From an uncultured Acidobacteriota bacterium (lineage in GTDB: Bacteria > Acidobacteriota > Vicinamibacteria > Vicinamibacterales > JAKQTR01), in contig CAWEYM010000004.1 in NCBI GenBank assembly GCA_963813325.1, positions 386,463 through 450,462 of the forward strand: a DNA stretch of 64,000 nt, written 5' to 3'. The notes below the pieces were generated by a model. The model was not told the DNA's origin. It ran no database searches and saw only the letters and a program-made list of their open reading frames with translations. A program made the translations under genes and the position numbers. Positions 2,971 to 57,801 of this stretch are shown here, piece after piece (positions within the stretch are counted from its first letter, which is position 1; every line of letters begins with the position of its first letter).

Positions 2971-3006
2971 GTCTCTAGGTCGACTCGTTCCTCCTGAGTG
3001 TCGTTG

Positions 3007-3045
3007 GACCCGGTCGCCCGCAGGGGCGGCCGGGTCGTTTTTTTT
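3007..3045 (+). terminator. Rho-independent terminator after the porin gene
   Basis: 13-bp GC-rich stem (GACCCGGTCGCCC / GGGCGGCCGGGTC, one G-T pair) with a 4-nt loop, followed by G and a run of 8 T (3038-3045). This is the only long T-run in the window. Confidence 0.8.
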
Positions 3046-3069
3046 GCGGCGATCTGGTAACATTGCTGC

Positions 3070-3414: not shown

Positions 3415-3468
3415 AGTCGTCCCGCGCGGTGGCTGCTGGATTCCGGGGCCGCCGCGGAGGTGTCGTGC

Positions 3469-12800: not shown

Positions 12801-13364
12801 GTCCACCAGCTGCTCGATCTTGGCCACCTCGTGCGAGGTCCGGAAGCCGTCGAAGAAGTGGAGAAACGGCACGCGGCTCCGCAGCGTCGCAGCCTGCCCG
12901 ATCAGCGCGAAGTCGTGGGCCTCCTGGGGCGATCCCGACGCGAGCATCGCGAACCCCGTCTGGCGGCACGCCATCACGTCGGAGTGATCGCCGAAGATCG
13001 ACAGCGCGTGCGACGCGACCGTGCGGGCCGAGACGTGCATGCAGCAGGACGTCAACTCGCCCGCGATCTTGAACATGTTCGGGATCATCAGCAGGAGGCC
13101 CTGCGACGCCGTGAAGGTCGTCGTCAGCGCGCCCGCCTGGAGCGAGCCGTGCACCGCGCCGGATGCGCCGCCCTCGGATTGCATCTCCACGACCAGCGGG
13201 ACGGTGCCCCAGACGTTCTTGTGGCCCTTGGCGGACCACTCATCCGCCCATTCGCCCATGTTGGACGACGGGGTGATCGGGTAGATGGCGATGACCTCGT
13301 TCGTGCGGTGCGCGACGGAGGCAACGGCTTCGTTGCCATCGATGGTGATGTACGGCCGTGTCAT
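9801..13364 (-). CDS. nifJ: Pyruvate:ferredoxin (flavodoxin) oxidoreductase, single-polypeptide type
   Basis: About 1,187 aa. Begins MTRPYITIDGNEAVASVAHRTNEVIAIYPITPSS. Ferredoxin-like CIQCNKCAMVCPHAAIR and CTGCTLCSVVCP. ThDP domain GGDGWAYDIGYGGLDH. ATG 13364 is preferred over 13409. Confidence 0.95.
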   Translation of the reverse strand: MTRPYITIDGNEAVASVAHRTNEVIAIYPITPSSNMGEWADEWSAKGHKNVWGTVPLVVEMQSEGGASGAVHGSLQAGALTTTFTASQGLLLMIPNMFKIAGELTSCCMHVSARTVASHALSIFGDHSDVMACRQTGFAMLASGSPQEAHDFALIGQAATLRSRVPFLHFFDGFRTSHEVAKIEQLVDEDLRAMLPDTLIADHRRRALSPDRPVLRGTAQNPDAFFQAREACNGYYDACPAVVQDVMEQFGRLAARPYHLFDYVGHPQAERVIVMMGSGAEVAHEAVEWMVARGEKVGLVKVRLYRPFSIAHFVGVLPATVTSIGVLDRTKEPGALGEPLYLDVVTALREARSAGTAPMAQDPVIVGGRYGLSSKEFTPAMVKGVYDNLALPRPRNHFTVGIVDDVTHLSLAHDLDLDIEPDDVRRCVFFGLGSDGTVGANKNSIKIIGEETDNFAQGYFVYDSKKAGAITISHLRFGPRQIRSSYLVRRANFVACHQYEFMDKYDVLDYAAPGAVFLLNSPFPGDQVWDELPREAQQVIIDRKLVFYVIDAYSVARDTGMGNRINTIMQTCFFAISGVLPRDEAITQIKKAIEKTYGKRGPEVVRKNFAAVDQTLANLHQVAVPERVTATRLMPPIVADAAPDFVKRVTAVMLANKGDLLPVSAFPVDGTWPSATAQWEKRNIAQDIPVWDAAICIQCNKCAMVCPHAAIRAKVYEPALLEGAPPTFKSMDFKGGEFKGLKYTIQVAAEDCTGCTLCSVVCPAKDKANPKHKSLDMHPQRPLREAERANYAFFLDLPEVDRSRVKADVKGAQFFQPLFEYSGACAGCGETPYVKLVTQLFGDRALIANATGCSSIYGGNLPTTPYAVNRDGRGPAWSNSLFEDNAEFGFGYRLAIDKQAEHARELVRTLASDLGGTLVDGLLEADQSSEQGIGEQRERVVALRQKLAALATPEAGWLARVADYLVRKSVWIVGGDGWAYDIGYGGLDHVMAMGRDVNILVLDTEVYSNTGGQQSKATPLGASAKFAMAGKSNFKKDLAMMAMAYGNTYVAHVAFGAKDVQTVKAFLEAESFPGPSIIIAYSHCIAHGYDLAFGLDQQKLAVDSGYWPLFRFDPRRINHGESPLVMDSPAPKIDLSKFTNNEPRFRVVEQLDPQRFKMLAERAQRETTTRFSVYEQLSKLAFPPAAK

Positions 13365-13465
13365 ATCGTTGGAATCTCCGAAAGGTGACCGGTGCGGTCC
13401 ATGGAACACGGGGACGCGAGCAGGACGCGCGGCCCCCAGAATCTCACAGCAACCTCTGTGCCCTT

Positions 13466-13494: not shown

Positions 13495-13757
13495 GGATAG
13501 GTCCGGCCGGGGGGCGAGGGGGTGCCGGAATGTCGGCATGGCATGAACTCATGCCCGCCGGTGGCGGAGCGCGAACCGCGTCGAGACGAACGCCGGAGAT
13601 GTCCGCAGGGGACTGGCGGGGGACTGCCCGACGGGTCGAGGGCGACCTCGCGGGTGCCTTGCGGCTCACCGACAACCTGAGAACGTACCATCACCGGGGC
13701 GATTTGTGAAGGGGCATGCCGCCGAGGATTCGGAAACGGGCGCCGAGCGTCTGTAGA

Positions 13758-14527
13758 ATGGTTGATATGGGGACCGTGACGCCTTCAATCGTCGCCTCAC
13801 GTCGAGCCCGGACGGGCCGCTGGACAGCCGGGCCGCGCGTCTGGCTCGGCGGCGTCATCGTCGCGGTGGCCATGGGCGCGTGCGGCGCGCAGGAGCCGCG
13901 GGCGCCGGACCCCGCCCGGCCGGCGGGGGCCGAGGCCGCACCGGCAGGCGCCGTCGCCCCGGCGCCGGCAGCGGCGCGGGTCGTGGTGCTCGGCGACAGC
14001 CTCACCGCCGGTCTCGGCCTGACCCTGGACGAGGCGTACCCGGCGCTCCTGCAGGCCCGCCTGCGCGCGGGCGGCTATCCCGTGACCGTGGTGAACGCTG
14101 GGGTATCGGGGGATACCTCGGCCGGCGGGCTGCGGCGGCTGGACTGGGCGCTCGACGGCGGGGCCGCCGTGCTGGTCGTGGCGCTGGGCGGGAATGACGC
14201 CCTGCGCGGCCTGCCGACCGAGGAGCTGAAGCAGAACCTGGCCGCCATCATCGAGCGCGCGCAGCAGCGTGGCGTGGCGGTGCTGCTGGCCGGGATGGAG
14301 GCGCCGCCCAATCTCGGCCAGGCCTACACGTCGGCCTTTCGCAAGGTGTACCGCGATCTGGCGGCCACGTACCGAGTAGCCTTCCTGCCGTTCCTCCTCC
14401 AGGATGTCGCCGGCGTTCAGGCGCTGAACCAGCCGGATGGGATCCACCCGAACGCGGACGGCGCCCGCCGGGTCGCGGATCATCTTCTGCCCTTGATCGA
14501 AACCATGCTCCGGCAGCGAGTCACGAC

Positions 14528-14531
<4 letters not shown>
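13758..14531 (+). CDS. SGNH/GDSL arylesterase-thioesterase (TesA-like), lipoprotein-type signal
   Basis: Block I VVVLGDSLTAG, block III GGNDALRG, block V DGIHPNADG. N-terminal hydrophobic segment ending AMGAC (lipobox-like). The start is uncertain (13758 or 13767). Confidence 0.85.
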
Positions 14532-15256
<725 letters not shown>

Positions 15257-15258
15257 GC

Positions 15259-17796
15259 ATGGTCTTCGTTCTGCGCATGGCGGTCCGGGAATTACGCGCC
15301 TCGTGGCGCAGGCTGCTGTTCTTCTTCCTGTGCCTGTCCCTGGGGGTCGGATCGATCGTCACCTTGCGGTCCGTCATCCAGATTGTGCGGGAAACGCTGA
15401 CCAGCGAATCGCGGGCGATGCTGGGCGCGGACGTGACGCTGTCGACCAACCGCGCGTGGACGCCCGACACGCTGGCGCGCATCGATGCCGCGCTCGCCGG
15501 CGCGCCCGTGGAGAGCCGCCTCGAGGAGGTGGAAACGCTCAGCATGGTGCGGCCCGTGGACGTGACCCGGGCCGTGGCCCGGATGGTCGAAGTACGCGGC
15601 GTGCAGGACGGCTTTCCGCTCTACGGCAAGGTCGAACTCCAGGGAGGGCAGCCGTACTCCCACGACCTGCTCAGGGGCCACGGCGCGCTGGCGAAGACGG
15701 AGTTGCTGGCGCAACTCGGCGTCGGCGTCGGCGACGCGGTGCTGATCGGGGACACCCGCTTCACGATCCGTGGTGTCCTGACCCGCGAACCCGGGCGGCG
15801 GGCGGGTGCGTTCAGCTTCGGGTCGCGCGTCCTGGTGGACCTCAAGGACCTGCGCGAAACAGGGCTGCTTGGCTTCGGCAGCCGGGCCAGCTACCGGATC
15901 CTGCTGCGGATGCCCGACGTGGCGGCGGACCGGCTCGCCGCTGTCCTCGGCAGCGCGCTCAAGGGCCGGTTCGTCTCGGTGCGCTCGTTCCGATCGTCGC
16001 AGGATCACCTTGGCGAGGAGATGGCGCGGACCGAGAACTACCTGAGCCTGATCGGCCTGGTCATCGTCATCCTGGGCGGCGTCGGCGTGTGGAGCGTCGT
16101 GCGCGTGTTCGTGAGCCAGAAGATCCGATCGGTGGCGGTGCTGAAGTGCCTCGGCGCCACCACCCGCCAGATCCTGTCGATCTACGTGCTCCAGGTGCTG
16201 GTGATGGGCGCGGCTGGCAGCCTGCTGGGCCTGGCGCTGGCGGCCGCCACCGTGCGGGCGCTCCAGCCGGTCGTGGGACAGCTGACCGGGGTGGTCGCGA
16301 GTTACGCGCTGACGACGCCCGCGATGGCGCAGGGCCTGGGCATCGGCCTGCTGGTGTCGCTGCTGTTCGCGCTCGTGCCGCTGCTCGATGTGCGGCACGT
16401 GCGGCCGTCGCTCCTCCTGCGGGCATCGGCCGGGGCACGGCCCCGGTTCGACTGGGTCCGCATCGGGACCATCGTGGCGGTCGGGGGGGTGCTGGTCGTC
16501 GTGGCGAGCTGGCAGGCGGCCTCCTGGCGCATCGGACTGATTCTGAGCGTGGGTCTCGCCGTCGCCGCGTTCGTGCTCAACGGGGCGGGGTGGCTGCTCG
16601 TCCGGGCGATCGCGCCGCTGCAGCGGTCCCGGTCCTTCGCGCTGCGACAAGCCGCGCGCCGGGTCACGCGCCCGGGCAATCAGACGCGGGCGGTGCTGCT
16701 GGCCATCGGGCTCGGCACCTTCTTCATCGTCGGGGTGCGGTCGCTCGAGACCAGCCTGCTGGCGGATTTCGAACTGGAGCTCCGGCCCGACACGCCCGAC
16801 ATGTTCCTGATCGACATCCAGCCGGACCAGGTCGCCGGCCTGCGCGGGTTCCTCGAGGCGCGCGACGGCCAGCGCGGCGCCGACGCCCTGCTCATCCCCG
16901 TCCTGCGTGCGCGGGTGACGGGCGTCAAGGGGCGTGACGTGAACCTCGACAGCTACGAGGACGTGCGCGGGCGCCACGAGCTGGGGCGCGAGTTCGTGAT
17001 CACCTATCGGTCGCAGCTGGCACGCAACGAGCGGGTGGTCGAGGGCACCTGGTGGCCGCCGGGACCGGCCCCGGAGCCCGAGGTGTCGGTCGAGCAGGGC
17101 CTGCGCGACCGGGCCGGCCTGCGGATCGGCGATACCGTGCGGTTCGACGTCCTCGGAAAGGTCATTGCGGCCAGGATCACGAGCGTGCGCAGCGTGGACT
17201 GGACCGACGCGCGGGCGGGGGGCTTCATGTTCGTCTTCCGCCCCGGGACCCTGGAGGGCGCGCCGCAGACGTTCATCGCGCCGGTGCGGGGGCCGGCGGA
17301 CCCGGCCGCGCGGGCGAGACTGCAGCGGGACCTGACGGACCGGTTTTCGAACGTGTCGATCATCGATGTGCGAGAGATCCTGGCGACCGTCCGCCGGGTG
17401 CTGTCGAGCGTGACACTGGCCGTGTCGATTGTCGGGGGCCTCGTGCTCTTCAGCGGCATGCTGATCCTGGTCGGCTCGATCTCGATGACCAAGTACCAGC
17501 GCGTCTACGAAGCGGCGGTACTGAAGACGCTTGGCGCCACGACGCGCGTGGTCGGTGCGATGCTGCTGCTGGAGTACGGCCTGCTCGGGCTGGTCGCCGG
17601 CGCCGTCGGTTCGGCCGGGGCCCTGGGCCTGTCGTGGGCGGTGAGCCGGTACGGGCTGCGGATGCCGTGGCATCCGGCCCCGGTCGAGCACCTCGTGGCG
17701 ATCGCGGTGTGCGCGGTGGTGGCGTCGGCGGTCGGCCTGATCGCGAGCCTCGATGTGCTGCGCCGGAAACCCCTGGCCACGCTCCGCGCCGAGTGA
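15259..17796 (+). CDS. FtsX-family ABC permease with duplicated 4-TM modules (YbbP-like)
   Basis: About 845 aa. Two FtsX-like TM bundles, each preceded by a large periplasmic domain. The start is ATG 15259 or TTG 15253, the latter overlapping the ATPase stop. Confidence 0.85.
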   Translation: MVFVLRMAVRELRASWRRLLFFFLCLSLGVGSIVTLRSVIQIVRETLTSESRAMLGADVTLSTNRAWTPDTLARIDAALAGAPVESRLEEVETLSMVRPVDVTRAVARMVEVRGVQDGFPLYGKVELQGGQPYSHDLLRGHGALAKTELLAQLGVGVGDAVLIGDTRFTIRGVLTREPGRRAGAFSFGSRVLVDLKDLRETGLLGFGSRASYRILLRMPDVAADRLAAVLGSALKGRFVSVRSFRSSQDHLGEEMARTENYLSLIGLVIVILGGVGVWSVVRVFVSQKIRSVAVLKCLGATTRQILSIYVLQVLVMGAAGSLLGLALAAATVRALQPVVGQLTGVVASYALTTPAMAQGLGIGLLVSLLFALVPLLDVRHVRPSLLLRASAGARPRFDWVRIGTIVAVGGVLVVVASWQAASWRIGLILSVGLAVAAFVLNGAGWLLVRAIAPLQRSRSFALRQAARRVTRPGNQTRAVLLAIGLGTFFIVGVRSLETSLLADFELELRPDTPDMFLIDIQPDQVAGLRGFLEARDGQRGADALLIPVLRARVTGVKGRDVNLDSYEDVRGRHELGREFVITYRSQLARNERVVEGTWWPPGPAPEPEVSVEQGLRDRAGLRIGDTVRFDVLGKVIAARITSVRSVDWTDARAGGFMFVFRPGTLEGAPQTFIAPVRGPADPAARARLQRDLTDRFSNVSIIDVREILATVRRVLSSVTLAVSIVGGLVLFSGMLILVGSISMTKYQRVYEAAVLKTLGATTRVVGAMLLLEYGLLGLVAGAVGSAGALGLSWAVSRYGLRMPWHPAPVEHLVAIAVCAVVASAVGLIASLDVLRRKPLATLRAE

Positions 17797-20917: not shown

Positions 20918-20928
20918 GTCCGGTGCCC

Positions 20929-21420
20929 TCACAGCGCCAGGTAGCGGCGCAACGCCATCCGCGCCCGATGCAGCTGTCCCTTCGACGTGCCGGCCGTGAT
21001 GCCCAGCAGCGTCCCGATCTCGCGGTGCTTGTAGCCCTCCACGTCGTGGAGCACGAAAACCTGGCGGGCCCCGTCCGGCAGCCGACCGATCGCGGCGTCC
21101 ATGTCCATCGTCACGTCCGGCCGTCTCGGGCGGGACGCCACGCGTTCGGCGTCCAGTTCGCCGTCCACCATGTGCCGCCGGCGGGCGGTCAGGCGTCCCC
21201 GGCGCTCGAGGATCAGGTTGACGGCCAGGCGGTAGAGCCACGTCCCGAACGCCGACTCGCCCCGGAAGGTGCCGAGCTTCTCCCAGGTCCGGACGAACAC
21301 GTCCTGCGCCAGGTCGTCCGCCTCGTCTCCGCCGGCCATGCGCCGGGCCAGCCCGTGGATGCGCGGGACGTGACGGCGGTAGAGGCGCTCGAAGGCGTGG
21401 ATGTCCCCCTCTGCGGCCAA
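20929..21420 (-). CDS. ECF-type RNA polymerase sigma factor
   Basis: Region 2 (DEADDLAQDVFVRTWEKLGTFRGESAFGTWLYRLAVN) and region 4 (ARQVFVLHDVEGYKHREIGTLLGITAGTSKGQLHRAR). The first canonical start is TTG 21420. The N-terminus is uncertain because the frame stays open further upstream without an ATG, GTG or TTG. Confidence 0.85.
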   Translation of the reverse strand: MAAEGDIHAFERLYRRHVPRIHGLARRMAGGDEADDLAQDVFVRTWEKLGTFRGESAFGTWLYRLAVNLILERRGRLTARRRHMVDGELDAERVASRPRRPDVTMDMDAAIGRLPDGARQVFVLHDVEGYKHREIGTLLGITAGTSKGQLHRARMALRRYLAL

Positions 21421-21594
21421 TCGCCAGTCGCGCCGGTCGAGATCGACGAGTGTCGCCTGCGGTTCAGCGGCGGGAATCGGGTCCCCCTTCGCTCCGGGCC
21501 GGCAAGGCCTCAGTCCCCGTCTTCAATTCGTTGGATGGGTCCGCCCGGCGAAAGGTTGGCAGGCCCGCGCTATGATACGCGGGGAGGTGGTGTC

Positions 21595-22446
21595 GTGCGA
21601 ATCGCGCTGGTGCAGCAGGCTGCGGGCCCGGACCCCGCGGCCAACCTCGAACGGGGATTGGCGGCGGCCCGCGCGGCCGCGGAGGGCGGGGCGAAGCTCG
21701 TGGCCTTCCCGGAGCTCGCCTTCACCACGTTCTTTCCGTGCTGTCGGCCCGGCGGGCCCGCGCCCCTGACCCGCGCCGAGCCCGTCCCGGGACCGACGAC
21801 GGAGGCGTTCTCGGCCGTGGCCGCGGAACTCGGGATCGTCGTCGTGCTCAACCTGTACGAGCGTGAGGACGACCGCGCCTACGACAGTTCCCCGGTCATC
21901 GACGCCGACGGCCGCCTGCTGGGTACGACGCGAATGCTGCACGTCGCGCAGATGCCCGGGTTCTGGGAACAGGACTACTACACGCCCGGCGATCACGGCC
22001 TGCCGGTGTACGAGACGGCGGCCGGCCTGGTCGGCGTGGCCATCTGCTATGACCGGCACTACCCGGAGGTCATGAGGAGCCTCGGCCTGCAGCGAGCCGA
22101 CCTGGTCGTGGTCCCGCAGGCGGGGTCGGTGGGGGAGTGGCCGGACGGATTGTACGAAGCCGAGTTGCGGGTGGCCGCATTCCAGAACGGGTATTTCACG
22201 GCCCTGGCGAATCGCGTCGGCCGGGAGCCCGACACCGAGTTCGCGGGCGAGTCGTTCGTGTGCGATCCGACGGGCCGGGTGGTGGCCAGGGCCGGCGCCG
22301 GGACCGATGAGATCCTGTACGCCGACTTGGATTACGCCCTCCTCGAGCGGTCGCCCGCCCGCCGGCTGTTCTACCGCGACCGTCGGCCCGGCCTTGTGCC
22401 CGACCTGCTGGGGATCGGTCGCGAGGGCCTGAGGCACGGCGACTGA
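21595..22446 (+). CDS. Carbon-nitrogen hydrolase (nitrilase superfamily) homologue lacking the catalytic Lys
   Basis: GTG 21595 with GGAGG 7 nt upstream. Glu motif VAFPELAF (E40). Cys motif VGVAICYDRHYPE (C151). The R-K-x-H-L motif reads T-R-M114-L-H-V. Confidence 0.8.
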   Translation: MRIALVQQAAGPDPAANLERGLAAARAAAEGGAKLVAFPELAFTTFFPCCRPGGPAPLTRAEPVPGPTTEAFSAVAAELGIVVVLNLYEREDDRAYDSSPVIDADGRLLGTTRMLHVAQMPGFWEQDYYTPGDHGLPVYETAAGLVGVAICYDRHYPEVMRSLGLQRADLVVVPQAGSVGEWPDGLYEAELRVAAFQNGYFTALANRVGREPDTEFAGESFVCDPTGRVVARAGAGTDEILYADLDYALLERSPARRLFYRDRRPGLVPDLLGIGREGLRHGD

Positions 22447-39187: not shown

Positions 39188-39940
39188 ATGGCGAACTCGA
39201 CTGCATTTCCCGGACTGGCCACCGTCGTGGCGTGGGCGCGCTCCCTCGCCGCGTATGTCTTCCTGGGTGTCTACCTGGCGGTCGTCGGCCCGCCCGCGCT
39301 GCTGCTGACGGCCTTGACCGGTCGCGCGACCCACATCTTCACCCTCGGCATCTTCGGCGCCCGGACCGCCCGGCGGATCCTAGGCGTGCACTACACGATT
39401 GAAGGCGCCGAGCACGTCCGCGGCGATCGGCCCACGGTGTACTGCATCAACCACCAGAGCAACGTCGACGTGCTGGCCTTCGAGATCCTGTACCCGCTCT
39501 GCCCGAACCTCCGCGTCATGTACAAGGCCGAGATGGGCAGGGTGCCCATCCTGGGGCGAGCCATGAGGGCGGCCGGGTTCGTGCCCGTCGAGCGGCAGCA
39601 CCGCGAGCGCGCGATCGGCGCGGTCGACGCGGCCGCGGCCCGGCTGATGGCGGGGGACTCCTTCCTCCTGGCCCCGGAGGGGACCCGGAGCCAGACCGGG
39701 AATCTCCTGCCGTTCAAGAAAGGCGGGTTCGTGATGGCGATCAAAGCGCAGGTGCCCGTGGTGCCGATCGCGCTCGTCGGTACCCGGGATGCCATGCCCA
39801 AGGGGCGCGCGCTCGTGAGGCCCACTCAGGTGACGGTGCGGATCGGCGCGCCCATCGACACCCGCGGCCTCACCTTCGAGGACCGGGACGCCCTCGCGAC
39901 ACGCGTGCGCGACGTGCTCGGCCGCCTGTTGACGATGTGA
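39188..39940 (+). CDS. plsC: 1-acyl-sn-glycerol-3-phosphate acyltransferase
   Basis: N-terminal TM helix. HX4D motif (NHQSNVDV), FVPVER, LAPEGTRS and VPVVPIAL blocks. Confidence 0.85.
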   Translation: MANSTAFPGLATVVAWARSLAAYVFLGVYLAVVGPPALLLTALTGRATHIFTLGIFGARTARRILGVHYTIEGAEHVRGDRPTVYCINHQSNVDVLAFEILYPLCPNLRVMYKAEMGRVPILGRAMRAAGFVPVERQHRERAIGAVDAAAARLMAGDSFLLAPEGTRSQTGNLLPFKKGGFVMAIKAQVPVVPIALVGTRDAMPKGRALVRPTQVTVRIGAPIDTRGLTFEDRDALATRVRDVLGRLLTM

Positions 39941-41461: not shown

Positions 41462-43249
41462 ATGAACAGTGATCTCATCATCGGTATGGCCGGCTCGGGC
41501 GGCGACGGGATCGTGTCCGCGGGCGAATCCCTGCTGACGGCGGCGGCGCTCGAGGGCTACCACGGGGTCATGACCAAGAGCTTCGGCCCGCAGATTCGTG
41601 GCGGCGAGTCGAGCTTCCGGTTGCGGATCTCGACGGGCAAGGTGCTGAGTTCGGGCGGGGCGCTCGACATCGCGGTGGCGCTGAACTGGGAGGACTACCT
41701 GAAGTTCGGCGGCGAGCTCGGCGTGGGGGGCCACACGACGGTCATCTACGACAGCAACACCGGCGTGGCGCCCGACAAGATCCCGCTCGTGGGCGTGACG
41801 CCCGCCGAGGTCCTGGCCGTGCCCATCGAGCAGATTGCCAGGGATGCGGGCGGGACCGACCGCGCGAAGAACACGGTCGTGCTCGGCCTGATGGCCGGCT
41901 GGATCGGCATCGGCCGTGAGCACATGGTCGCCGGCATCCGCAAGCGCCTCTCGAAGAAGGGCGAGGAGGTGGTCGGCCAGGCCGTGAAGGCGTTCGAAGC
42001 GGGCATCGCGTATGCCGAGGCGCATCCCCTCAAGGTGTCCCGCACCATGGTGGGCCAGGAGGGCACGCGCACGGCGAAGTTCATCGTGGATGGCAACGAC
42101 CTGTGCGCGGCGGCGGCGATCGTGGCGGGGTGCGACTTCTTCGGAGGCTACCCGATCACGCCGTCGTCGGAGATCATGCACTTCCTCGCCCGGGAAATCT
42201 GGAAGTACGGCGGCACCCTGATGCAGGCGGAGGACGAGATCGCCGGAATCGGCGCGGTCGTCGGCGCGTCGTTCGCGGGCAAGAAGGCCATGACCGCGAC
42301 CTCCGGCCCGGGCATGTCGCTCAAGACCGAGATGCTCGGCCTGGCGACCATCGCCGAGCTGCCGCTGGTGTGCGTCAACGTCCAGCGCGGCGGCCCGTCC
42401 ACCGGCATCCCGACCAAGGGCGAACAGTCGGACCTCTTCCAGGCCGCGTTCTCGGCGCACGGCGACGTGGTGCGCCCCGTGCTCGCGCCGATCAGCGCCG
42501 AGGACACCTTCCCGGTGACCGTGGAGGCGTTCAACATCGCGGAGACCTACCAGACCCCGGTGATCATCCTCTCCGACCAGGAGATCGCGCAGCGCAAGGA
42601 GACGATGGATCCGATCGATCCGACCGGCATCCCGATCGTCGAGCGCCGGCGCCCGACCGAGAAGGAACTGGAGCACTACGTCAGGTTCCGGTTCACCGAG
42701 TCGGGCATCAGCCCGATCAGCCAGCCCGGCATGAAGGGCGGCAACTACCTGGCGTCGGGGATCGAGCACAACGAGGTGGGCGCGCCGACGGCGAACGGCG
42801 AGGTGCACGCGAGGATGAACGAGAAGCGGATCAAGAAGTTCCTGCCGCTCAAGATGCGCCGCGACCTCTTCATCCAGGAGGGCAGTCCCGATGCGCCCGT
42901 GGGGCTGATCAGCTGGGGCAGCATGGCCGGCGTGGCGCTCGAGGCGCTGCACATGGCGCAGCAGCAGGGCATCAAGGTGAAGCTGCTGGTGCCGCGGCTG
43001 CTGTTCCCGGTGTCCGAGGAGACGTACCAGGAGTTCTTCGCGTCGATTCAGCGCGGCCTGGTCGTGGAGCAGAACCACCTGAGCCAGCTCTACCGGCTGA
43101 TCCGGATGTACGTGGACGTCCCGCGCGGCGTCGAAACGCTGGCCAAGAGCGGGTCGAACCCGATCACCCCGGCCGAAGTGGTCGACCGGCTGCGGCACCT
43201 GATGCTGGCGCTCCAGCGCGAGAAGGGCCGCGAGCCGATGCTCGGCTGA
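41462..43249 (+). CDS. korA: 2-oxoacid:ferredoxin oxidoreductase alpha subunit (fused gamma-alpha, KorA/OorA type)
   Basis: 595 aa. N-terminal gamma-like domain (GSGGDGIVSAGESLL...FGPQIRGGES). The alpha domain follows (GNDLCAAAAIVAGCDFFGGYPITPSSEI, TSGPGMSL). Confidence 0.9.
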   Translation: MNSDLIIGMAGSGGDGIVSAGESLLTAAALEGYHGVMTKSFGPQIRGGESSFRLRISTGKVLSSGGALDIAVALNWEDYLKFGGELGVGGHTTVIYDSNTGVAPDKIPLVGVTPAEVLAVPIEQIARDAGGTDRAKNTVVLGLMAGWIGIGREHMVAGIRKRLSKKGEEVVGQAVKAFEAGIAYAEAHPLKVSRTMVGQEGTRTAKFIVDGNDLCAAAAIVAGCDFFGGYPITPSSEIMHFLAREIWKYGGTLMQAEDEIAGIGAVVGASFAGKKAMTATSGPGMSLKTEMLGLATIAELPLVCVNVQRGGPSTGIPTKGEQSDLFQAAFSAHGDVVRPVLAPISAEDTFPVTVEAFNIAETYQTPVIILSDQEIAQRKETMDPIDPTGIPIVERRRPTEKELEHYVRFRFTESGISPISQPGMKGGNYLASGIEHNEVGAPTANGEVHARMNEKRIKKFLPLKMRRDLFIQEGSPDAPVGLISWGSMAGVALEALHMAQQQGIKVKLLVPRLLFPVSEETYQEFFASIQRGLVVEQNHLSQLYRLIRMYVDVPRGVETLAKSGSNPITPAEVVDRLRHLMLALQREKGREPMLG

Positions 43250-44688: not shown

Positions 44689-44970
44689 CGGGCTCCTTGC
44701 GGCCTGCCGGGCCCCGGCGCAGGCGCGGCCGGAGGGCCCTGATTATAGCTGGTGGCGGCGTCGACAGGGCGTCCTGGGCGGCGACGCGGCGGGTGGGTCT
44801 CGCCGGGCGATGCTGCTGGAGTGAGCGCGACCGGGAACCCTGAGTGCGGCCCGTGGGACTCGGGGCCGCACGCCGCAAGCCTTCGGGCGCCCCTACGCTA
44901 CAATGACGGATCCGGCCGACCCGGGACCCGGCAGGACCGGCCCACTCCGGCGCCCCCGCGAGGGTCACTC

Positions 44971-50618
<5,648 letters not shown>

Positions 50619-50622
<4 letters not shown>

Positions 50623-51443: not shown

Positions 51444-52801
51444 CCCGTTCCATCTCCGCTGTGCTGGTCGGGCGCGGGATGCAGCCCGATCGCGCCGATG
51501 ACAAGGCCGCCCTGCTCGATCGCGCGACCGTGGCGATCGGCGGCGGCGCCACGGCGGCGTTCTTCGTCCCGGGTCGCGTGGAACTGCTCGGCAAGCACAC
51601 CGACTACGCCGGTGGCCGCAGCCTGCTGTGCGCGGTCGAGCAGGGATTCTGCGTCGCGGCGCGCCGGCGGGCCGATGCAATCGTGCGCATCCTCGCGGTC
51701 GATCGCCGCGAGATCGTGTCGTGCGCCTGGGAAGCCGCCGCCGATCAACGCGCCGACGACTGGGCCAACTACGCGCTGACCGTCGTCCGACGCCTCGCGC
51801 GCAACTTCCCGGATGCCCGCTGCGGTGCGGACATCGCATTCGTGAGCGATATCCCGGCTGCGGCGGGCCTGTCGAGCTCGAGCGCGCTGATGATCGCGGT
51901 CTTCCTGGCGCTGGCGGAGGTGAACGGCCTGGCCTCGCGGGCGGCCTATCGCCGCGAGATCCAGCGGCCCGAGGATCTTGCCGGGTACGTGGCCGCGATT
52001 GAGAACGGGCGGCGCTTCGGGGGCCTCGAGGGCGATCGCGGTGTCGGCACGTCTGGCGGCAGCGAAGATCACACGGCGATCCTCTGCTGCCGGGCGGGCG
52101 CGGCCAGCCAGTACGCGTTTGCGCCGGTGCGCCGGGAGCGCGTGGTGAGGTTCCCGGCCGCTCATCGGCTGGTCATCGCGGACAGCGGCGTTGCCGCGGA
52201 GAAGACCGGCGCGGCCCGCGTGGCGTACAACCGCGCGTCGCTGGCCGTGGAGGCGATCCTGGAGGTCTGGCACGCCGCCACAGGCCAGCGGCCATCGTCA
52301 CTCGACGCGGCGGCGTCGGCGGACCCGGGCCGTCCGGATCGTTTGCGGGCCGTCCTCAGGGACGCGGCCGTGCCCGGTTTCACGCCGCAGGCGCTGCTGG
52401 ATCGCTTCGAGCAGTTCTGGCAGGAGAGCACCGAGTTCGTGCCGGCCGCCGGCAACGCGCTGGACGCGGGGGACCTTCGCCGGTTTGGCGCGATCGTGGA
52501 CAGGTCCCAGGAGGCGGCGGAGCGTCAGCTGGGCAACCAGGTCGCGGAGACCATCGCGTTGCAGCGCCTGGCGCGGGAGGAAGGGGCCCTCGCCGCGTCG
52601 GCCTTCGGCGCCGGCTTCGGCGGCAGCGTCTGGGCCCTCGTGCCGGAGTCCGACGTCGATCGATTCGGCGCCGCGTGGGGGCAGCGCTATCGACAGGCGT
52701 ATCCCGTCGCCGGGGCGCACGCGCGGCTCATCACGTCCCACCCTGGTCCGCCGGCGACCCCCCTGCTCGGCGAGTCCGATCTGCTGACCGGGCCGATCTG
52801 A
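51440..52801 (+). CDS. Galactokinase-family GHMP sugar kinase
   Basis: GRVELLGKHTDYAGG (GalK signature), IPAAAGLSSSSAL (GHMP motif II), FGAGFGGSVWAL (motif III). GTG 51440 overlaps the upstream stop (GTGA). An alternative start is ATG ~51480. Confidence 0.8.
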   Translation: MTRSISAVLVGRGMQPDRADDKAALLDRATVAIGGGATAAFFVPGRVELLGKHTDYAGGRSLLCAVEQGFCVAARRRADAIVRILAVDRREIVSCAWEAAADQRADDWANYALTVVRRLARNFPDARCGADIAFVSDIPAAAGLSSSSALMIAVFLALAEVNGLASRAAYRREIQRPEDLAGYVAAIENGRRFGGLEGDRGVGTSGGSEDHTAILCCRAGAASQYAFAPVRRERVVRFPAAHRLVIADSGVAAEKTGAARVAYNRASLAVEAILEVWHAATGQRPSSLDAAASADPGRPDRLRAVLRDAAVPGFTPQALLDRFEQFWQESTEFVPAAGNALDAGDLRRFGAIVDRSQEAAERQLGNQVAETIALQRLAREEGALAASAFGAGFGGSVWALVPESDVDRFGAAWGQRYRQAYPVAGAHARLITSHPGPPATPLLGESDLLTGPI

Positions 52802-52821
52802 AGACGCACGTCGCGCCGCGG

Positions 52822-53298
52822 TCACTTTCCGCTGCTGTCTCCGCCCTGTTCGTCCAGCACGCGGTCCATCGCGCGGCGGACCATGGCCTCGACCTCGTCG
52901 AAGGTGACACGGTAGGCGTCGAGATCCGCGCCGAAGGGATCGGCGATCGACTGCTGGTCCCGCCCTCGTGTCGCAAAGGCCGAGAGGAGTTGCGCGTCCG
53001 CGCTCCCGCCGATCGCGCGGACCTGCGCCAGGTGCCGGCTCGTCATGGTCAGCACCAGGTCGGCGCCGTCGATCACCTGGCGCGTCGCCTGCGTCGATCG
53101 GTGATGGTCGAGGCTCAGGCCATGCTCGCGCGCGACCTGGCGCGCCAGCTCCGTTGCCGGCAATCCGTCCTCGGTGGCGGTGCCCGCGCTGGAGATCGCC
53201 ATCCCGTCCACGCCGCGCTCCGCCAGCACGCGGTCGGCGATGACTTCGGCCATCGCGCTCCGGCAGATGTTCCCGGTGCACACGAACACGATGTGCAT
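52822..53298 (-). CDS. Low-molecular-weight phosphotyrosine protein phosphatase
   Basis: MHIVFVCTGNICRSAMAE (CX5R(S) P-loop) and the IADPFG general-acid Asp. ATG 53298 shares one nucleotide with the upstream stop (TGATG). Confidence 0.9.
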   Translation of the reverse strand: MHIVFVCTGNICRSAMAEVIADRVLAERGVDGMAISSAGTATEDGLPATELARQVAREHGLSLDHHRSTQATRQVIDGADLVLTMTSRHLAQVRAIGGSADAQLLSAFATRGRDQQSIADPFGADLDAYRVTFDEVEAMVRRAMDRVLDEQGGDSSGK

Positions 53299-55958
53299 CA
53301 CCGGGGGTGCCCCGCGTCGTGCCGGGCCTTGAGCGATCGGTAGTCGGTCTTGCCGGTGCCGAGCAGCGGGATCGCGTCCACCTCGACCACCTGCCGGACG
53401 TTGTGGAGCGGGCTCAGGCCGGCTTCCCGCAGCCACGCGTTGACCTGGCCGCGATCGGCAGGCTGCCGCGTGAACAGGACGATGTCGGGGCTGTCGGGAT
53501 TGCCCATCGCCTCGACCGCGATCACGGGGCCGTCGTCGGCCTCCTGGAAATGCTGCTGGAGCACCGATTCGATCGCGGGCAGCGAGATCATCTCACCGCC
53601 GAGCTTGACGAACCGTTTCAGCCTGCCCTTGAAGAACAGCACGCCGTCGGGATTCGCCATCACGAGATCCCCGGTGCGATACCACGCCCGTCCCTCGAAG
53701 TCGATGAACGGCGGATCCCCCGCGTGGTGCAGATAGCCGGGGAAGATGCTGGGGCCGCGCACGAGCAGCATGCCTGTGCCGCCGGGCGGCACGCGCGCGC
53801 CGGTATCGAGGTCGACGATCGCGCCCTCGAGGCTCGGCAGCAGGTGGCCGATGCTGCCGGGCACCGGGGCGTCCACGTCGTTGAGCGACACGACCGGCGA
53901 GCATTCCGTGATGCCGTATCCCTCCATCACGACGGCCGACGGGCACCGCGTCCGCAACGCCTCGTAGAGCTGGTCCGGGCACTTCTCGGCGCCGGTGACC
54001 GCCAGGCGCAACGACGCCAGCTGGCGGTCCTCCGCGACGCGCAGGATGCCCGACAGGAACGTCGGCGTGGAGATGACGACCGAGACGGTGTAGGCCTCCA
54101 TGAGGCGGGCGAGCACCGCCGCTTCCGTGGGATTCGCGTGGTACACGGTGCGCAGCCCGACCGAGCACGGCAGCACGACGGTGGCCAGCAGCCCGAACGA
54201 ATGGAACGGCGGCAGGAACCCCAGCAGGACGTCGCCGTCGACGACGCGTCCCAGCTGGAGCACGTCGCGGACGTTGGTCAGGATGTTGGTGTGCGTCAGG
54301 GGTACGGCCTTCGGCAGGCTTTCCGAGCCGCTCGTGAAGAGCACGACGGCGTTCTCGCGGGGGGTGGCGCGTTCGAGCTCCCGCCAGCTCAGGCGGCTGC
54401 GAACCACCGCGCGCAGCTTCTGGAACACACCGATGCGGGGCAGGACGTCCTCCACCTTCACAAACCGGTCCCCGAGCCCGGCGAGATCGACGCCCATCGT
54501 CTCCAGGCGTTTCACCAGCGCGTCGGCGGTGACGATGTGGCGCACGCCGAGCTGGTCGAGGGCCTGCTGGAGATTCCGCGTGCCCGTCGTCCAGTTGACC
54601 ATCACGGGTGTCTTGCCGGCGAAGAGCGCAGCGAGGTACAGCACGCCCGCGCCGGCCGACGCCGGCAGCATGATGCCGAGGTGCTCCCCGTCCAGCGCCT
54701 CGAGGATGGGCTTGAGCAGGAAGATCGCCGTGACGATGTCCCGGTTGGTCCGGACACCGCCCGCCTGGTCCGCCAGCAGGGGCCGGCCCGGTGCGCTCGC
54801 CGCCTGCGCCAGGAACGCCGCGGTAATCGTCGCGGCCGGCGGCAGGGTGAGCAGCGCCGTGCGGCCGTTCCGATCGAACCACGCCGAGGGCACCGGCTTC
54901 AGGTCGGCCTCGAGCGCCGAGACCCCGTGGCCCGCAGCGGCGAGCACCACGTCGCCGACCGTCCGGAGGCTTTCCGGCGTGCCGACCGAGAAGCCGAACT
55001 CCTGCTCGATCCAGGCCACCAGTTCCGCCGAGGCGAGGCTGTCGAGCCCCAGGTCGCGCGCGAGCTGCTGATCGAGCGAGATGTCCGACTGGCCGGTCTG
55101 TTCGCGCAGGTGATCGATCACCAGTCCGCGGGTGGCGTCGGTGACGGAGGACGGATCGGCGCCGGACGCGCGATAGACCGGATCGGGCCGGGTGCGCGGG
55201 CCGCCGCGTTCCCAGACGCCGTAAGGCACGTACGTGTTGGGCGCGACCTGGTCGTTGTAGAACGCCTCGAGGTAGCGGTTGATCGCCGTCCGGGGCGCTG
55301 TCCGGGGGAAATCGGCCGGTTCGACGAACTCGATCGTCACGCGGCGGCGGGGCATGAAGAACACGCCGTTGAGGAGGAGGTACTTCACGGCGCGCAGCAG
55401 CGTCGCGCCCGGGTCGGGCATGCGGCCGGAGAACCCGAGGCTGAAGCTCGAGCCCCAGAGCCCGTTGTGGCGCACCAGCACGATCCTGGCGCCCGGCACA
55501 CCCTTGACCATCGTCTCCGCGCCGCTGGCGCTCCCCAGGTCCTCCCGGGCCTGTCGCTTCAGGCGGCCGGCCGGATAGAGGAGGATGTTCTCGCCCCGGG
55601 CGAGCCCGTCAATCGTGTCGGCCAGCGCCGCGCGCATCCCGTCAGCGACGGCGGCGCCCTGGCGTTCCATGTTCGGGAGAATCCGGGTGCCGAACAACAG
55701 CGCGATGCGGCCGAGGATCGTCCGCCCGATCTGGTATTCGTCGGCGAGCGCCCTCGGCCGGAACCCGGGGTAGAGGAGCAGCGTGAGGATGACCGGGTCC
55801 ACGAGCGCCGCGTGGTTCGGCAGGAACAGGATGCCGCGCTGGCCGCGTCGCCGGACCTCGTCGAGGCCGCGCACGTCCAGGCGATAGCGAAGCGCCAGCA
55901 AGGGGCGCCCCACCGCGGCGAGGCAGCGCGCGAATACCGCGGCGAACGGGGCTGGCAT
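53298..55958 (-). CDS. Tri-domain acyltransferase - acyl carrier domain - acyl-AMP ligase (Aas-like with built-in ACP)
   Basis: 886 aa. PlsC-type HX4D (NHAALVD, H49/D54). Carrier motif DLGLDSLAS (Ser307). Adenylation motifs FTSGSESLPKAV, YGITECS, YRTGDLV, GRLKRFVKLGGEMISLPAIE, GTGKTDYRSLK. Confidence 0.85.
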   Translation of the reverse strand: MPAPFAAVFARCLAAVGRPLLALRYRLDVRGLDEVRRRGQRGILFLPNHAALVDPVILTLLLYPGFRPRALADEYQIGRTILGRIALLFGTRILPNMERQGAAVADGMRAALADTIDGLARGENILLYPAGRLKRQAREDLGSASGAETMVKGVPGARIVLVRHNGLWGSSFSLGFSGRMPDPGATLLRAVKYLLLNGVFFMPRRRVTIEFVEPADFPRTAPRTAINRYLEAFYNDQVAPNTYVPYGVWERGGPRTRPDPVYRASGADPSSVTDATRGLVIDHLREQTGQSDISLDQQLARDLGLDSLASAELVAWIEQEFGFSVGTPESLRTVGDVVLAAAGHGVSALEADLKPVPSAWFDRNGRTALLTLPPAATITAAFLAQAASAPGRPLLADQAGGVRTNRDIVTAIFLLKPILEALDGEHLGIMLPASAGAGVLYLAALFAGKTPVMVNWTTGTRNLQQALDQLGVRHIVTADALVKRLETMGVDLAGLGDRFVKVEDVLPRIGVFQKLRAVVRSRLSWRELERATPRENAVVLFTSGSESLPKAVPLTHTNILTNVRDVLQLGRVVDGDVLLGFLPPFHSFGLLATVVLPCSVGLRTVYHANPTEAAVLARLMEAYTVSVVISTPTFLSGILRVAEDRQLASLRLAVTGAEKCPDQLYEALRTRCPSAVVMEGYGITECSPVVSLNDVDAPVPGSIGHLLPSLEGAIVDLDTGARVPPGGTGMLLVRGPSIFPGYLHHAGDPPFIDFEGRAWYRTGDLVMANPDGVLFFKGRLKRFVKLGGEMISLPAIESVLQQHFQEADDGPVIAVEAMGNPDSPDIVLFTRQPADRGQVNAWLREAGLSPLHNVRQVVEVDAIPLLGTGKTDYRSLKARHDAGHPR

Positions 55959-56137
55959 GGAGCCTCCAGGTACGTGAAACCCAGGGACACGGGCGGACCC
56001 TGTGAGGTCAACCTACCGCGCTCCGGGCTGCGGGCGCAAGGCCGCGCCTCCACCCGCAGGCGCGCGGCGGGCCGGGAAATCCATGTATGATCGCCAGTCG
56101 GCGCTTGCCCGGACACGGCGGTGCGCCAGGGGACGCC

Positions 56138-57067
56138 ATGGCCGACCTGGTCATTCACACGGAGGGGTTGACGCGCGCGTTCGGCGCGGTGCGCGCCGTG
56201 GACGGCCTGGACCTCGACGTGCCGCCCGGGATCGTCTTCGGGTTCCTCGGGCCCAACGGCGCCGGCAAGACGACCGCAATCAGGCTGCTGCTCGGGTTGC
56301 TGGAGCCGACCGAGGGGCGGGCCCGCGTGCTGGGGTTCGATACGAGGAACGAGGCGGACCACATTCGCGCCAGAGCCGGGGCGCTGATGGAACATCCGGG
56401 TCTGTACGAACGCCTCAGCGCGGAGGACAATCTCGAGTTCTACGGGCGGGTCTGGGGCATCCCCCCGCGCGACCGGCAGGCGCGCATCAGGGAACTGCTC
56501 GAGCCGCTGGAACTCTGGGACCGGCGCACCGAACCGGTCGGGCGCTGGAGCCGCGGCATGAAGCAGAAGCTGGCCGTGGCGCGGGCGCTCTTCCATCGGC
56601 CGGCCCTGCTGTTCCTGGACGAGCCGACCGCCGGCCTCGACCCGGTGGCCGCGGCCGCGCTGCGGGACGACCTGGCCCGGCTCGTCGGGCGCGCCGGGGT
56701 CACGGTGTTCCTGACGACCCACAACCTGAACGAGGCGGAAAAGCTCTGCCAGCGGGTCGCCGTGATCAAGCAGGGGCGGCTGCGGGCCGTCGGGCACCCC
56801 GACGAACTGCGGGCCCGCAGCGCGACGCGCGCGGACATCTCGGGGCGCGGGTTCTCGGACCCCGCCCTGGCGCTGGTGCGGGCCCGGCCCGAGGTGACGG
56901 CGGCCGAGATGCGCAACGGCCACCTGCTGCTGTCGTTACGAGAGGACGCGGCGACCGCCCCGATCGTGACACTCCTGGTCCAGCTCGGCGTCGAGGTGGA
57001 GGAGGTCCGAAAGGACAAGGGCAGCCTCGAGGACGTGTTCCTCACCCTCATGGAGGAGGACCGGTGA
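56138..57067 (+). CDS. ABC transporter ATP-binding protein (ABC-2/DrrA-like)
   Basis: Walker A GPNGAGKTT, signature WSRGMKQKLAVARAL, Walker B LLFLDEPTAGLD. Start chosen at ATG 56138 (MADLVIHTEGLTRAFG). Confidence 0.9.
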   Translation: MADLVIHTEGLTRAFGAVRAVDGLDLDVPPGIVFGFLGPNGAGKTTAIRLLLGLLEPTEGRARVLGFDTRNEADHIRARAGALMEHPGLYERLSAEDNLEFYGRVWGIPPRDRQARIRELLEPLELWDRRTEPVGRWSRGMKQKLAVARALFHRPALLFLDEPTAGLDPVAAAALRDDLARLVGRAGVTVFLTTHNLNEAEKLCQRVAVIKQGRLRAVGHPDELRARSATRADISGRGFSDPALALVRARPEVTAAEMRNGHLLLSLREDAATAPIVTLLVQLGVEVEEVRKDKGSLEDVFLTLMEEDR

Positions 57068-57801
57068 TCCGCGACATCCGCACCGTCGCGTGGAAGGAAC
57101 TGAGGGAGCTCGTCTGGCTCGGCGGCACGCTGCGCGGCGGGCGCCTGAGCCTGTTCGTGCTGCTGTTCATGTTCGGCGTGTTCCTGCCGTACCAGTCCGG
57201 GCGGGCATGGGTCGAGTCGCCGTCCACGCTCTTCTACTGGGCGTGGATCCCGCTCATGCTGGTCGGCGGCGCCGTCGCCGATTCGTTCGCCGGCGAGCGC
57301 GAGCGCCACACGCTCGAAACCCTGCTGGCCAGCCGGCTGCCGGACCGGGCGATCCTCCTCGGCAAGGTCCTCGCCGCGGTCGGCTACGGCTGGTCGCTGG
57401 TGATGGCGATGCTCGTGCTCGGGCTGGTGACGGTGAACCTCACGGCGGGGCGGGGACAGCCACTGCTGTACTCGTGGTACATTGGCATCGGATCGCCCGT
57501 GATGGCGTTGCTCGGGGCGGGGCTGGCCGCGGGCGCCGGAATCTTCGTGTCCCTGCGCGCGCCGACGGTGCGCCAGGCGGCGCAGACGCTCAACGTGGCC
57601 ATCCTCCTGCTGATGTTCGTGCCCATCCTCGGGATCCAGGCGCTGCCGGACACCTGGAAGATCGCGCTCATCAAGGGAACCGCGCGCGTCGGCGTCGGCG
57701 GCGTGATTGCCGGAGCAGCCGCGCTCCTGGCGGCCGTGGACGCGGCGCTGCTGGCGGCCGCGATGGCGCGCTTTCGGCGGTCGCGCCTCATACTGGATTG
57801 A
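57064..57801 (+). CDS. ABC-2-type membrane permease
   Basis: GTG 57064 overlaps the ATPase stop (GTGA). 245 aa with about 6 hydrophobic helices. Begins IRDIRTVAWKELRELV. Confidence 0.7.
   Translation: MIRDIRTVAWKELRELVWLGGTLRGGRLSLFVLLFMFGVFLPYQSGRAWVESPSTLFYWAWIPLMLVGGAVADSFAGERERHTLETLLASRLPDRAILLGKVLAAVGYGWSLVMAMLVLGLVTVNLTAGRGQPLLYSWYIGIGSPVMALLGAGLAAGAGIFVSLRAPTVRQAAQTLNVAILLLMFVPILGIQALPDTWKIALIKGTARVGVGGVIAGAAALLAAVDAALLAAAMARFRRSRLILD

Follow-up and report, generated by a model that had tools for sequence, protein, structure and literature searches.

What does a protein do that carries an acyltransferase, an acyl carrier domain and an adenylate-forming synthetase in one chain, and do the genes packed around it take part? 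The question is raised by a 64,000-nucleotide stretch of an uncultured Acidobacteriota genome (contig CAWEYM010000004.1; hereafter the window), which encodes such a protein of 886 residues on its (-) strand. The gene overlaps that of a low-molecular-weight protein tyrosine phosphatase (LMW-PTP), and the pair converges on a carboxylase/sugar operon. An earlier examination of the letters and their reading frames (the sequence-only reading) had proposed an Aas-like enzyme that might act on the product of the adjacent operon, with the phosphatase as an unexpected partner. Here, we describe a computational analysis of the protein, its relatives and their gene neighbourhoods. The enzyme is probably an Aas-type lipid re-acylation protein, likely to act on lysophospholipids, in which a carrier has been built in between acyltransferase and synthetase. 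Aas-type enzymes with a carrier of their own are a widespread variant, and the phosphatase lies outside the conserved system.

The reference system is that of Escherichia coli, in which lysophospholipids are flipped inward by LplT and re-acylated by Aas, which itself makes the acyl-ACP that it consumes from free holo-acyl carrier protein (holo-ACP). Lysophospholipid acylation is abolished when either LplT or Aas is inactivated, and the system shields E. coli from phospholipase attack (PMC11416262). In other bacteria lplT and aas are joined in an operon or fused, and the LplT-Aas fusions are uncharacterised; the same paper makes no mention of an in-cis carrier (PMC11416262). A single sentence elsewhere mentions fusions of some FAAL-like domains with lysophospholipid acyltransferases (PMC8460268). 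The literature searched, whose coverage was incomplete, held no paper in which an Aas with an in-cis carrier is described or assayed, and an Aas-type enzyme with a built-in carrier has apparently gone undescribed so far.

Domain architecture of the 886-residue protein

The gene and its parts are as follows, with the evidence for each in brackets.

53298..55958 (-): gene of the three-domain protein, 886 aa (open reading frame, Pfam, full-length homologues, AlphaFold2 model)
55209..55958 (-): PlsC/GPAT-fold acyltransferase domain, residues ~1-250, with a hydrophobic helix (3-24) at its start (Pfam, Foldseek)
55797..55814 (-): HX4D catalytic motif, H49-D54 in NHAALVD (sequence, alignments)
55563..55577 (-): variant YPAGR of acyltransferase motif III, residues 128-132 (aligned to FPEGR of E. 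coli Aas)
54924..55151 (-): integrated acyl carrier (PP-binding) domain, residues ~270-345 (PF00550, model, Foldseek)
55038..55040 (-): codon of Ser307, the predicted 4'-phosphopantetheine site in DLGLDSL (conservation, model)
53301..54836 (-): Aas-type adenylate-forming (acyl-ACP synthetase) domain, residues ~375-886 (Pfam, NCBIfam, Foldseek)
within the synthetase domain (-): motifs FTSGSESLPK (541-550), YRTGD (760-764) and GKTDYR (869-874) (sequence)

Pfam matches follow one another along the chain in the order Acyltransferase (residues 27-137), PP-binding (280-326) and AMP-binding (423-743). An AlphaFold2 model of the whole protein, with 36 homologues in the alignment, had a predicted local distance difference test score (pLDDT) of 85 and a predicted template modelling score of 0.79; a separate model of residues 1-365 was of lower confidence (pLDDT 69.5). 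Pfam and structure prediction together confirm the acyltransferase, carrier and ligase that the sequence-only reading had assigned to this reading frame, as well as their order, and every motif it had quoted is present (NHAALVD at residue 48, DLGLDSL at 302, FTSGSESLPK, YRTGD and GKTDYR).

The synthetase domain matches PF00501 (AMP-binding) over residues 423-743 with 203 bits (E=7.7e-60) and contains core motifs A3, A7 and A10; the adenylation motifs are conserved in the family. The four best NCBIfam models are all of the Aas type (PRK08633, PRK06334, PRK06814 and PRK08043), and a Foldseek search with the whole model returned adenylate-forming enzymes, including the Vibrio acyl-ACP synthetase 8i8d and also the AasS-ACP entry 8hsy. 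The proposal of an Aas-like enzyme with an integrated carrier is thus borne out, both by the ranking of these models and by the position of the carrier between the two enzymatic domains.

The carrier domain matches PF00550 over residues 280-326 with 34.1 bits, above the gathering score of 20.8. In the AlphaFold2 model it consists of helices 274-288, 307-321 and 334-341, with Ser307 at the N-terminus of helix II. The carrier segment of the residue 1-365 model could be superposed by Foldseek on chains of E. coli AcpP, with a template modelling score of ~0.8, a root-mean-square deviation of 1.7-2.0 A and 27-29% identity. Ser307 is invariant in two alignments, A1 and A2. Residue conservation was further counted in the 150 best representatives of an N-terminal profile search, in which the carrier serine is kept by 135 of the 137 sequences that span the motif, and in related loci fetched with their flanks, in which it is kept by 75 of 83; the motif reads D-L-G-[LMF]-D-S-L. 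The carrier-like segment therefore has both a predicted AcpP-like helical fold and an attachment serine conserved across the family. All eight exceptions among the loci belong to Holophagaceae/Geothrix (L042, L046, L048, L055, L059 from Geothrix terrae, L066, L071 and L072). There the serine is replaced by Ala, Val or Gly, giving DAL, DVL, DGL or DAM at locus positions ~10900-10950, and the rest of the domain is retained, so that the carrier of this clade looks like a clade-specific pseudo-carrier.

The acyltransferase domain is supported by its predicted fold. Foldseek matched the N-terminal model to human GPAT1 (8e4y) and Thermotoga PlsC (5kym) in the Protein Data Bank, each with probability 1.00 and E ~2e-4, and lower-ranked matches of the first ~250 residues were PatA, squash GPAT and LpxM. 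H49 and D54 are invariant in A1 and A2, and the HX4D motif is found in 137 of 141 family representatives. Motif III is P-A-G, P-S-G or P-G-G in 144 of 147 representatives and P-E-G in none, and the same holds across the 82 related loci.

Like E. coli Aas, the window protein combines an N-terminal PlsC-type acyltransferase with an acyl-ACP synthetase at the C-terminus in one chain. Alignment with the MG1655 Aas sequence gave 28% identity over window residues 368-881 (514 residues, E=7e-60) and a weak match in the transferase (residues 13-173, E=0.005). E. coli Aas has no counterpart to window residues ~174-367, and the carrier is thus an insertion relative to it: ~80 residues plus linkers (~250-370) lie between the enzymatic domains of the window protein, whereas E. 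coli Aas has none and uses free holo-ACP. Motif III likewise differs, being PAG in the window protein and PEG in E. coli Aas. Because the reliance on ACP in trans and the PEG motif are both absent, and because every curated Aas cut-off lies above the score obtained, the protein is better regarded as a variant than as a plain member of the Aas group.

The best curated models for the window protein, PRK08633 and PRK06814 (404 and 333 bits), represent fusions of ~1140 aa in which a major facilitator superfamily (MFS) transporter precedes the acyltransferase and the synthetase. Fused members of the present family share that overall layout; the models, however, span ~1140 positions, too few to accommodate a carrier domain. 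The 1286-aa fusion L062 illustrates the difference, since it matches PRK08633 in two separate stretches, the better of which (776-1282) corresponds to model positions 613-1139, and its Pfam PP-binding match (685-735) lies outside that stretch.

A precedent for an activating domain, an in-cis carrier and an AGPAT/PlsC-type acyltransferase in one chain is ElbD of Myxococcus xanthus. Its domains follow a nonribosomal peptide synthetase-like order (reductase, acyl-CoA synthetase, thiolation domain, acyltransferase), and its acyl-CoA synthetase and ACP activities have been shown in vitro (PMC9131029, PMC9426513). Compared with that published description, the window protein has the order acyltransferase, carrier, synthetase and no reductase domain. 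Among the 150 best representatives, the seven that were longest or matched with the greatest offset are all MFS fusions, and Pfam found no reductase domain in these either. We therefore rejected membership in the ElbD-type ether-lipid enzymes, on account of the different order and the missing reductase, and kept ElbD as an analogy. Vibrio AasS and Chlamydia AasC (PRK06334) share with the window protein the adenylate-forming chemistry and an ACP thiol as acceptor. They are soluble, single-domain enzymes that release acyl-ACP into the general pool; the window protein, in contrast, holds the carrier and the consuming acyltransferase in one chain, which would imply channelling rather than release.

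Family distribution and gene neighbourhoods

A scan of one genome per GTDB species yielded at least 593 loci, with full-length homologues (42-72% identity) in at least 593 species genomes from at least ten phyla. The best 80 of these loci cover residues ~5-880 at 42-64% identity and come from Acidobacteriota (Vicinamibacterales, and Holophagae including the cultured Geothrix terrae), Planctomycetota, Verrucomicrobiota, Kiritimatiellota, Lentisphaerota, Desulfobacterota (among them Desulfosediminicola, Desulfopila and cable bacteria), Myxococcota, Dependentiae, Elusimicrobiota and Gammaproteobacteria. The closest relatives of the window protein, at 71-72% identity, are from Vicinamibacterales-type metagenome-assembled genomes. 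The best 120 protein-database matches listed all have E=0, and nearly all are ~880-906 aa long with the same domains. Most are unnamed; the names given are 'AMP-binding protein' or 'long-chain-fatty-acid--[acyl-carrier-protein] ligase'. A profile of the acyltransferase plus carrier retrieved 520 representatives at E<=1e-30 from among 1.84 billion (clusters at 50% identity).

Gene neighbourhoods were compared in a sample of 82 related loci, taken with 10 kb flanks where the contig allowed, and adjacency was counted by tblastn. All-against-all clustering of the open reading frames in these loci revealed a single neighbour that recurs across phyla, an MFS transporter of ~420 aa. Its gene lies directly upstream on the same strand and often overlaps the start codon of the enzyme gene. 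A transporter of this kind, LplT-like or Atg22-like, adjoins the enzyme gene or is fused to it in 43 of the 82 loci; about eight others have too little upstream DNA for a judgement. In most loci the transporter is LplT-like, and the upstream MFS proteins match LplT (PRK11195) as well as the MFS part of PRK08633 and PRK06814. A second transporter family, Atg22-like (PF11700), has been recruited to the slot upstream of the enzyme gene in five loci, from Desulfobacterales, unclassified Deltaproteobacteria, Desulfobacteraceae, Pirellulales and Sedimentisphaerales (L006, L009, L011, L023 and L045). The recurrent MFS neighbour mirrors the lplT-aas logic of E. coli, with the order reversed: transporter then enzyme in the family, aas then lplT in E. 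coli.

The fused proteins are ~1280-1380 aa long and consist of MFS_1, Acyltransferase and AMP-binding. A PP-binding match is present in the fusions L062, P0248, P0127 and P0125, and none was obtained at E<=1e-3 in P0170, P0171, P0205 and P0224. A separate acpP gene was sought in the flanks with an E. coli AcpP query, which matched the in-cis carrier domains only; no AcpP gene was seen among the window reading frames scanned. The 64-kb window also holds no phosphopantetheinyl transferase gene, which is uninformative because such a gene could be anywhere in the genome.

The phosphatase, the convergent operon and other genes of the window

The features that flank the three-domain gene are listed below.

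52822..53298 (-): LMW-PTP family gene, 158 aa, whose ATG shares one base with the upstream TGA (PF01451)
53260..53280 (-): CX5R P-loop of the phosphatase, C7-R13, CTGNICR (sequence)
44968-50622 (+): single-chain eukaryote-like biotin carboxylase, ~1,884 aa (biotin carboxylase, biotin carboxyl carrier protein, ACC_central segment, carboxyltransferase)
55959..56086 (no strand): divergent intergenic region of 128 bp between the three-domain gene and an ABC-2 transporter operon (map of open reading frames)
56087-57801 (+): ABC-2 transporter operon, divergent to the three-domain gene (ABC_tran and ABC2_membrane matches)

The stop codon of the enzyme gene (TGA, 53300-53298) and the start codon of the LMW-PTP gene (ATG, 53298-53296) have one base, the A, in common. 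On the other side of the phosphatase gene, the GalK-like reading frame of the (+) strand ends at 52801 and the phosphatase stop codon starts at 52822, leaving a convergent gap of 20 nt. The sequence also confirms these two details of the sequence-only reading, namely the TGATG at 53298 that joins the enzyme to a CX5R LMW-PTP and the 20-nt distance to the carboxylase/sugar operon on the opposite strand. Such stop/start overlaps and short convergent gaps are ordinary in compact bacterial genomes, and they therefore carry no statistical weight alone. The overlapping phosphatase gene is probably co-transcribed with the enzyme gene. The promoter of the latter presumably lies within 55959..56086; a scan of 52600-56300 with promoter and terminator consensus sequences saw none, which is uninformative for such an organism.

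The phosphatase matches PF01451 (LMWPc) over residues 3-141 (E=1.4e-28), with CTGNICRS at residues 7-14 and a DP motif further on in IADPFG. When used as a tblastn query (E<=1e-3) against the 82 related loci and their flanks, it found no match. Its nearest homologues reach at most 53% identity, as against 72% for the neighbouring enzyme. Those that have names are Gemmatimonadota proteins annotated as LMW protein arginine or tyrosine phosphatases. In the three homologue loci examined, the phosphatase stands in the run DnaB, (RadA), IspD, Sua5/TsaC, PTP, AroE, followed by a phosphoribosyltransferase-family gene and then Gap, Pgk and Tpi; the contigs with Sua5-linked homologues (L086, L088, L089 and L090) are Gemmatimonadota-type. 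The pairing of Sua5 and phosphatase resembles the ywlC-ywlE arrangement of Bacillus. With these YwlE-like, Sua5-linked housekeeping enzymes the window phosphatase shares PF01451, the CX5R(S) loop and the DP motif. It differs in context, its gene following a lipid enzyme and those of its homologues following directly after Sua5/TsaC. Its P-loop has Ile (CTGNICRS) at a position where Thr marks the arginine phosphatases.

The premise that LMW-PTPs normally pair with tyrosine kinases of the bacterial BY-kinase type does not fit this subgroup, whose nearest homologues sit in the Sua5/TsaC housekeeping cluster, and no BY-kinase or polysaccharide export gene that could serve as a Wzb-type partner was seen among the window reading frames scanned. 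The occurrence of an ArsP_2 permease gene in the corresponding slot of relatives raised the idea that the phosphatase might be a thioredoxin-coupled arsenate reductase. Thioredoxin-coupled ArsC enzymes need a downstream cysteine pair besides the P-loop cysteine. The window protein has two cysteines only, C7 and C12, and ArsC models score much lower than PTP models (3e-10 vs 1e-20); on both grounds this assignment was rejected.

The interval that the phosphatase gene fills in the window (52802-53297), bounded by the enzyme gene and the convergent GalK-like gene, is a slot of variable content. In the three closest relatives it holds the ArsP_2 gene on the opposite strand (L001 12680-13546, L084 10831-11700, L085 4373-5242), and in L002 it is empty, the enzyme gene and the convergent GalK-like gene overlapping. 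The phosphatase is thus a lineage-specific insertion in a variable slot. A role for it as functional partner of the lipid enzyme, as had been suggested, does not hold up, given that no LMW-PTP lies within 10 kb in the 82 loci, and we rejected a functional tie between the two.

The convergent (+) run consists of the single-chain biotin carboxylase, an NTP-transferase gene and, last, the GalK-like kinase gene. The carboxylase adjoins the enzyme gene in four of the 82 loci (L002-L005), all of which belong to the nine fetched loci of Vicinamibacterales type; the three closest relatives (L001, L084 and L085) lack it at the corresponding position. Its presence beside the sugar genes is a presence/absence polymorphism. 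The GalK-like and NTP-transferase genes adjoin convergently in L001-L005, L084 and L085, which are likewise all Vicinamibacterales-type. Since all three genes are confined to such relatives, their adjacency reflects local synteny, and a functional link to them was rejected on that ground. The enzyme gene occurs independently of the carboxylase in relatives, and the notion that the enzyme acts on the product of the carboxylase/sugar locus falls with the tie between the two genes. Conservation of the divergent ABC-2 operon beside the enzyme gene is likewise limited to L001-L005, L084 and L085, all close Vicinamibacterales relatives.

Elsewhere in the window lie two further acyltransferase genes, encoding an Lnt-like apolipoprotein N-acyltransferase (CN_hydrolase, 507 aa; 20923-22446, +) and a canonical PlsC (PF01553, 108 bits; 39188-39940, +). 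They represent ordinary lipid machinery, unlinked to the three-domain gene. In E. coli the Lnt reaction generates lyso-phosphatidylethanolamine. The neighbourhood of the plsC gene, with ROK and pyruvate/2-oxoacid:ferredoxin oxidoreductase (POR) genes, is syntenic with L001. At 13716-17796 (+) a GDSL lipase/acylhydrolase gene is followed by genes for an ABC ATPase and a large FtsX/MacB-type permease, a set that resembles the tesA / ybbA-ybbP neighbourhood of E. coli. A Mtr/Pio-like module at 10-5256 (+) comprises a multihaem cytochrome (paired CXXCH, NrfB/MtrC-like) and an MtrB/PioB outer-membrane porin (246 bits) and continues with a mono-haem cytochrome c and then FeoB; module and FeoB suggest extracellular iron redox chemistry and iron uptake. 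Two POR systems, a single-chain PFOR of 1,202 aa (9801-13409, -) and a POR alpha/gamma-type subunit (41462-43249, +), hint at anaerobic or microaerobic metabolism.

Proposed mechanism and alternative explanations

The domain composition, the AcpP-like fold, the conserved serine and the Aas-type adenylation domain together make a self-contained mechanism of activation, tethering and transfer a reasonable inference. The C-terminal domain would adenylate a free long-chain fatty acid with ATP and load the acyl group onto the in-cis carrier, at the phosphopantetheine thiol of Ser307. The carrier would then swing to the N-terminal PlsC-fold domain, whose HX4D dyad would hand the acyl chain on to a lyso-lipid, most likely a lysophospholipid, on the cytoplasmic side of the membrane. 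The upstream or fused MFS transporter, for the most part LplT-like, would provide this acceptor in about half of the related loci fetched. The overlapping phosphatase and the convergent carboxylase/sugar operon would stand outside this mechanism. The activate-tether-transfer machine proposed earlier thus survives in its self-contained form. A carboxylated or otherwise unusual acyl substrate, the other half of that proposal, is left without support, because the sole neighbour that recurs across phyla is an MFS transporter, mostly LplT-like.

Several observations count against the assignment to lysophospholipid re-acylation. The PF01553 match (residues 27-137) scores 19.3 bits, under the gathering score of 23; this weak match is backed by the GPAT/PlsC fold matches of the model. 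All NCBIfam Aas models score far under their cut-offs, with 404 bits against an equivalog cut-off of 1221 for PRK08633, 333 against 1349 for PRK06814 and 235 against 886 for PRK08043; PRK06334 gave 363 bits. The glutamate of motif III is never present, and this non-canonical motif may reflect an altered acceptor site. The loss of the serine in Holophagaceae/Geothrix indicates that carrier function is dispensable or replaced at least there. The 64-kb window contains no LplT-like MFS gene (tblastn, E<=1e-5), none is adjacent to the enzyme gene in any Vicinamibacterales or Holophagaceae locus fetched, the eight serine-less loci included, and no MFS transporter of any kind adjoins the gene in the Vicinamibacterales-type lineage of the window. 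Finally, no enzymology for any three-domain family member was found in the literature searched.

Some of these observations could be accommodated if the chemistry were the same and the acceptor different. The enzyme would then place a particular fatty acid on some specialised lipid, for instance a lyso-aminolipid, a glycolipid or the precursor of an acidobacterial membrane-spanning lipid, and might, at least in LplT-less lineages, operate with the divergent ABC-2 transporter. The absence of P-E-G from motif III in every family member would fit such an acceptor, as would the lack of LplT in the window and in Vicinamibacterales and Holophagaceae loci, the retention of the ABC-2 operon in L001-L005, L084 and L085, and the replacement of the LplT-like transporter by an Atg22-like one in five loci. 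The ABC-2 adjacency, however, is confined to one close clade (62-72% identity) in which synteny alone would keep it, the partner that recurs across phyla is LplT-like, the adenylation domain groups with Aas-type synthetases, and no genes for headgroups or unusual fatty acids recur with the enzyme outside the close Vicinamibacterales clade. We consider a specialised acceptor possible but unlikely. A different objection concerns the carrier, which might be a structural or docking relic in an enzyme that uses free holo-ACP in trans as E. coli Aas does. Eight Holophagaceae/Geothrix loci do keep the domain although Ala, Val or Gly has replaced its serine, the Pfam PP-binding match is modest at 34 bits, and several fused homologues lack such a match at E<=1e-3. 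The serine is nevertheless retained by 135 of 137 representatives and by 75 of 83 loci, the exceptions among loci being limited to one clade, and the confidently predicted AcpP-like fold places it at the N-terminus of helix II. Such conservation in many phyla is expected of a modified, functional carrier, and we judge the relic explanation very unlikely.

The remaining explanation follows the gene order of this one genome and holds that the enzyme handles the product of the adjacent carboxylase/sugar-activation genes, with the translationally coupled LMW-PTP as functional or regulatory partner. The TGATG overlap does suggest co-translation in this genome, the gene pair ends 20 nt from the convergent operon, and the GalK-like and NTP-transferase genes are convergent with the enzyme gene in seven relatives as well. 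Comparison among relatives speaks against it at each point. An LMW-PTP is found in none of the 82 loci; its slot is empty in L002 and is occupied by an opposite-strand ArsP_2 gene in the three closest relatives; and the phosphatase homologues, at no more than 53% identity against 72% for the enzyme, belong, where examined, to the DnaB-RadA-IspD-Sua5-PTP-AroE cluster. The carboxylase accompanies the enzyme in four loci only and not in the three closest relatives, and outside L001-L005, L084 and L085 the family is never beside carboxylase, GalK or NTP-transferase genes. Convergent genes, moreover, are not co-transcribed. This explanation is thus extremely improbable.

Re-acylation of lysophospholipids by an Aas-type enzyme with its own carrier therefore remains the explanation that we favour. 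A bolder extension of it, which we regard as quite unlikely when taken as a whole, would have the built-in carrier constitute a private acyl-carrier pool through which recycled or exogenous fatty acids flow to membrane-lipid repair only, unmixed with the AcpP pool that serves fatty-acid synthesis. The PAG motif would then mark a change of acceptor, LplT-less lineages would use the enzyme for a lineage-specific lipid, perhaps together with the ABC-2 transporter, and the Holophagaceae would have turned the domain into a pseudo-carrier.

The family spans many poorly studied phyla (among them Acidobacteriota, Planctomycetota, Desulfobacterota, Verrucomicrobiota and Myxococcota), in which a correct name would improve annotations. 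It offers a single self-contained polypeptide for structural work on the shuttling of a carrier from an adenylation site to a membrane-facing acyltransferase, and it might serve as a tool for attaching selected fatty acids to lysolipids while leaving cellular ACP aside. In Gram-negative envelopes lysophospholipids are repaired by the Aas/LplT system, and a large natural family with the carrier fused into the chain supports, by the logic of 'Rosetta stone' fusions, an acyl-ACP intermediate that is channelled rather than released.

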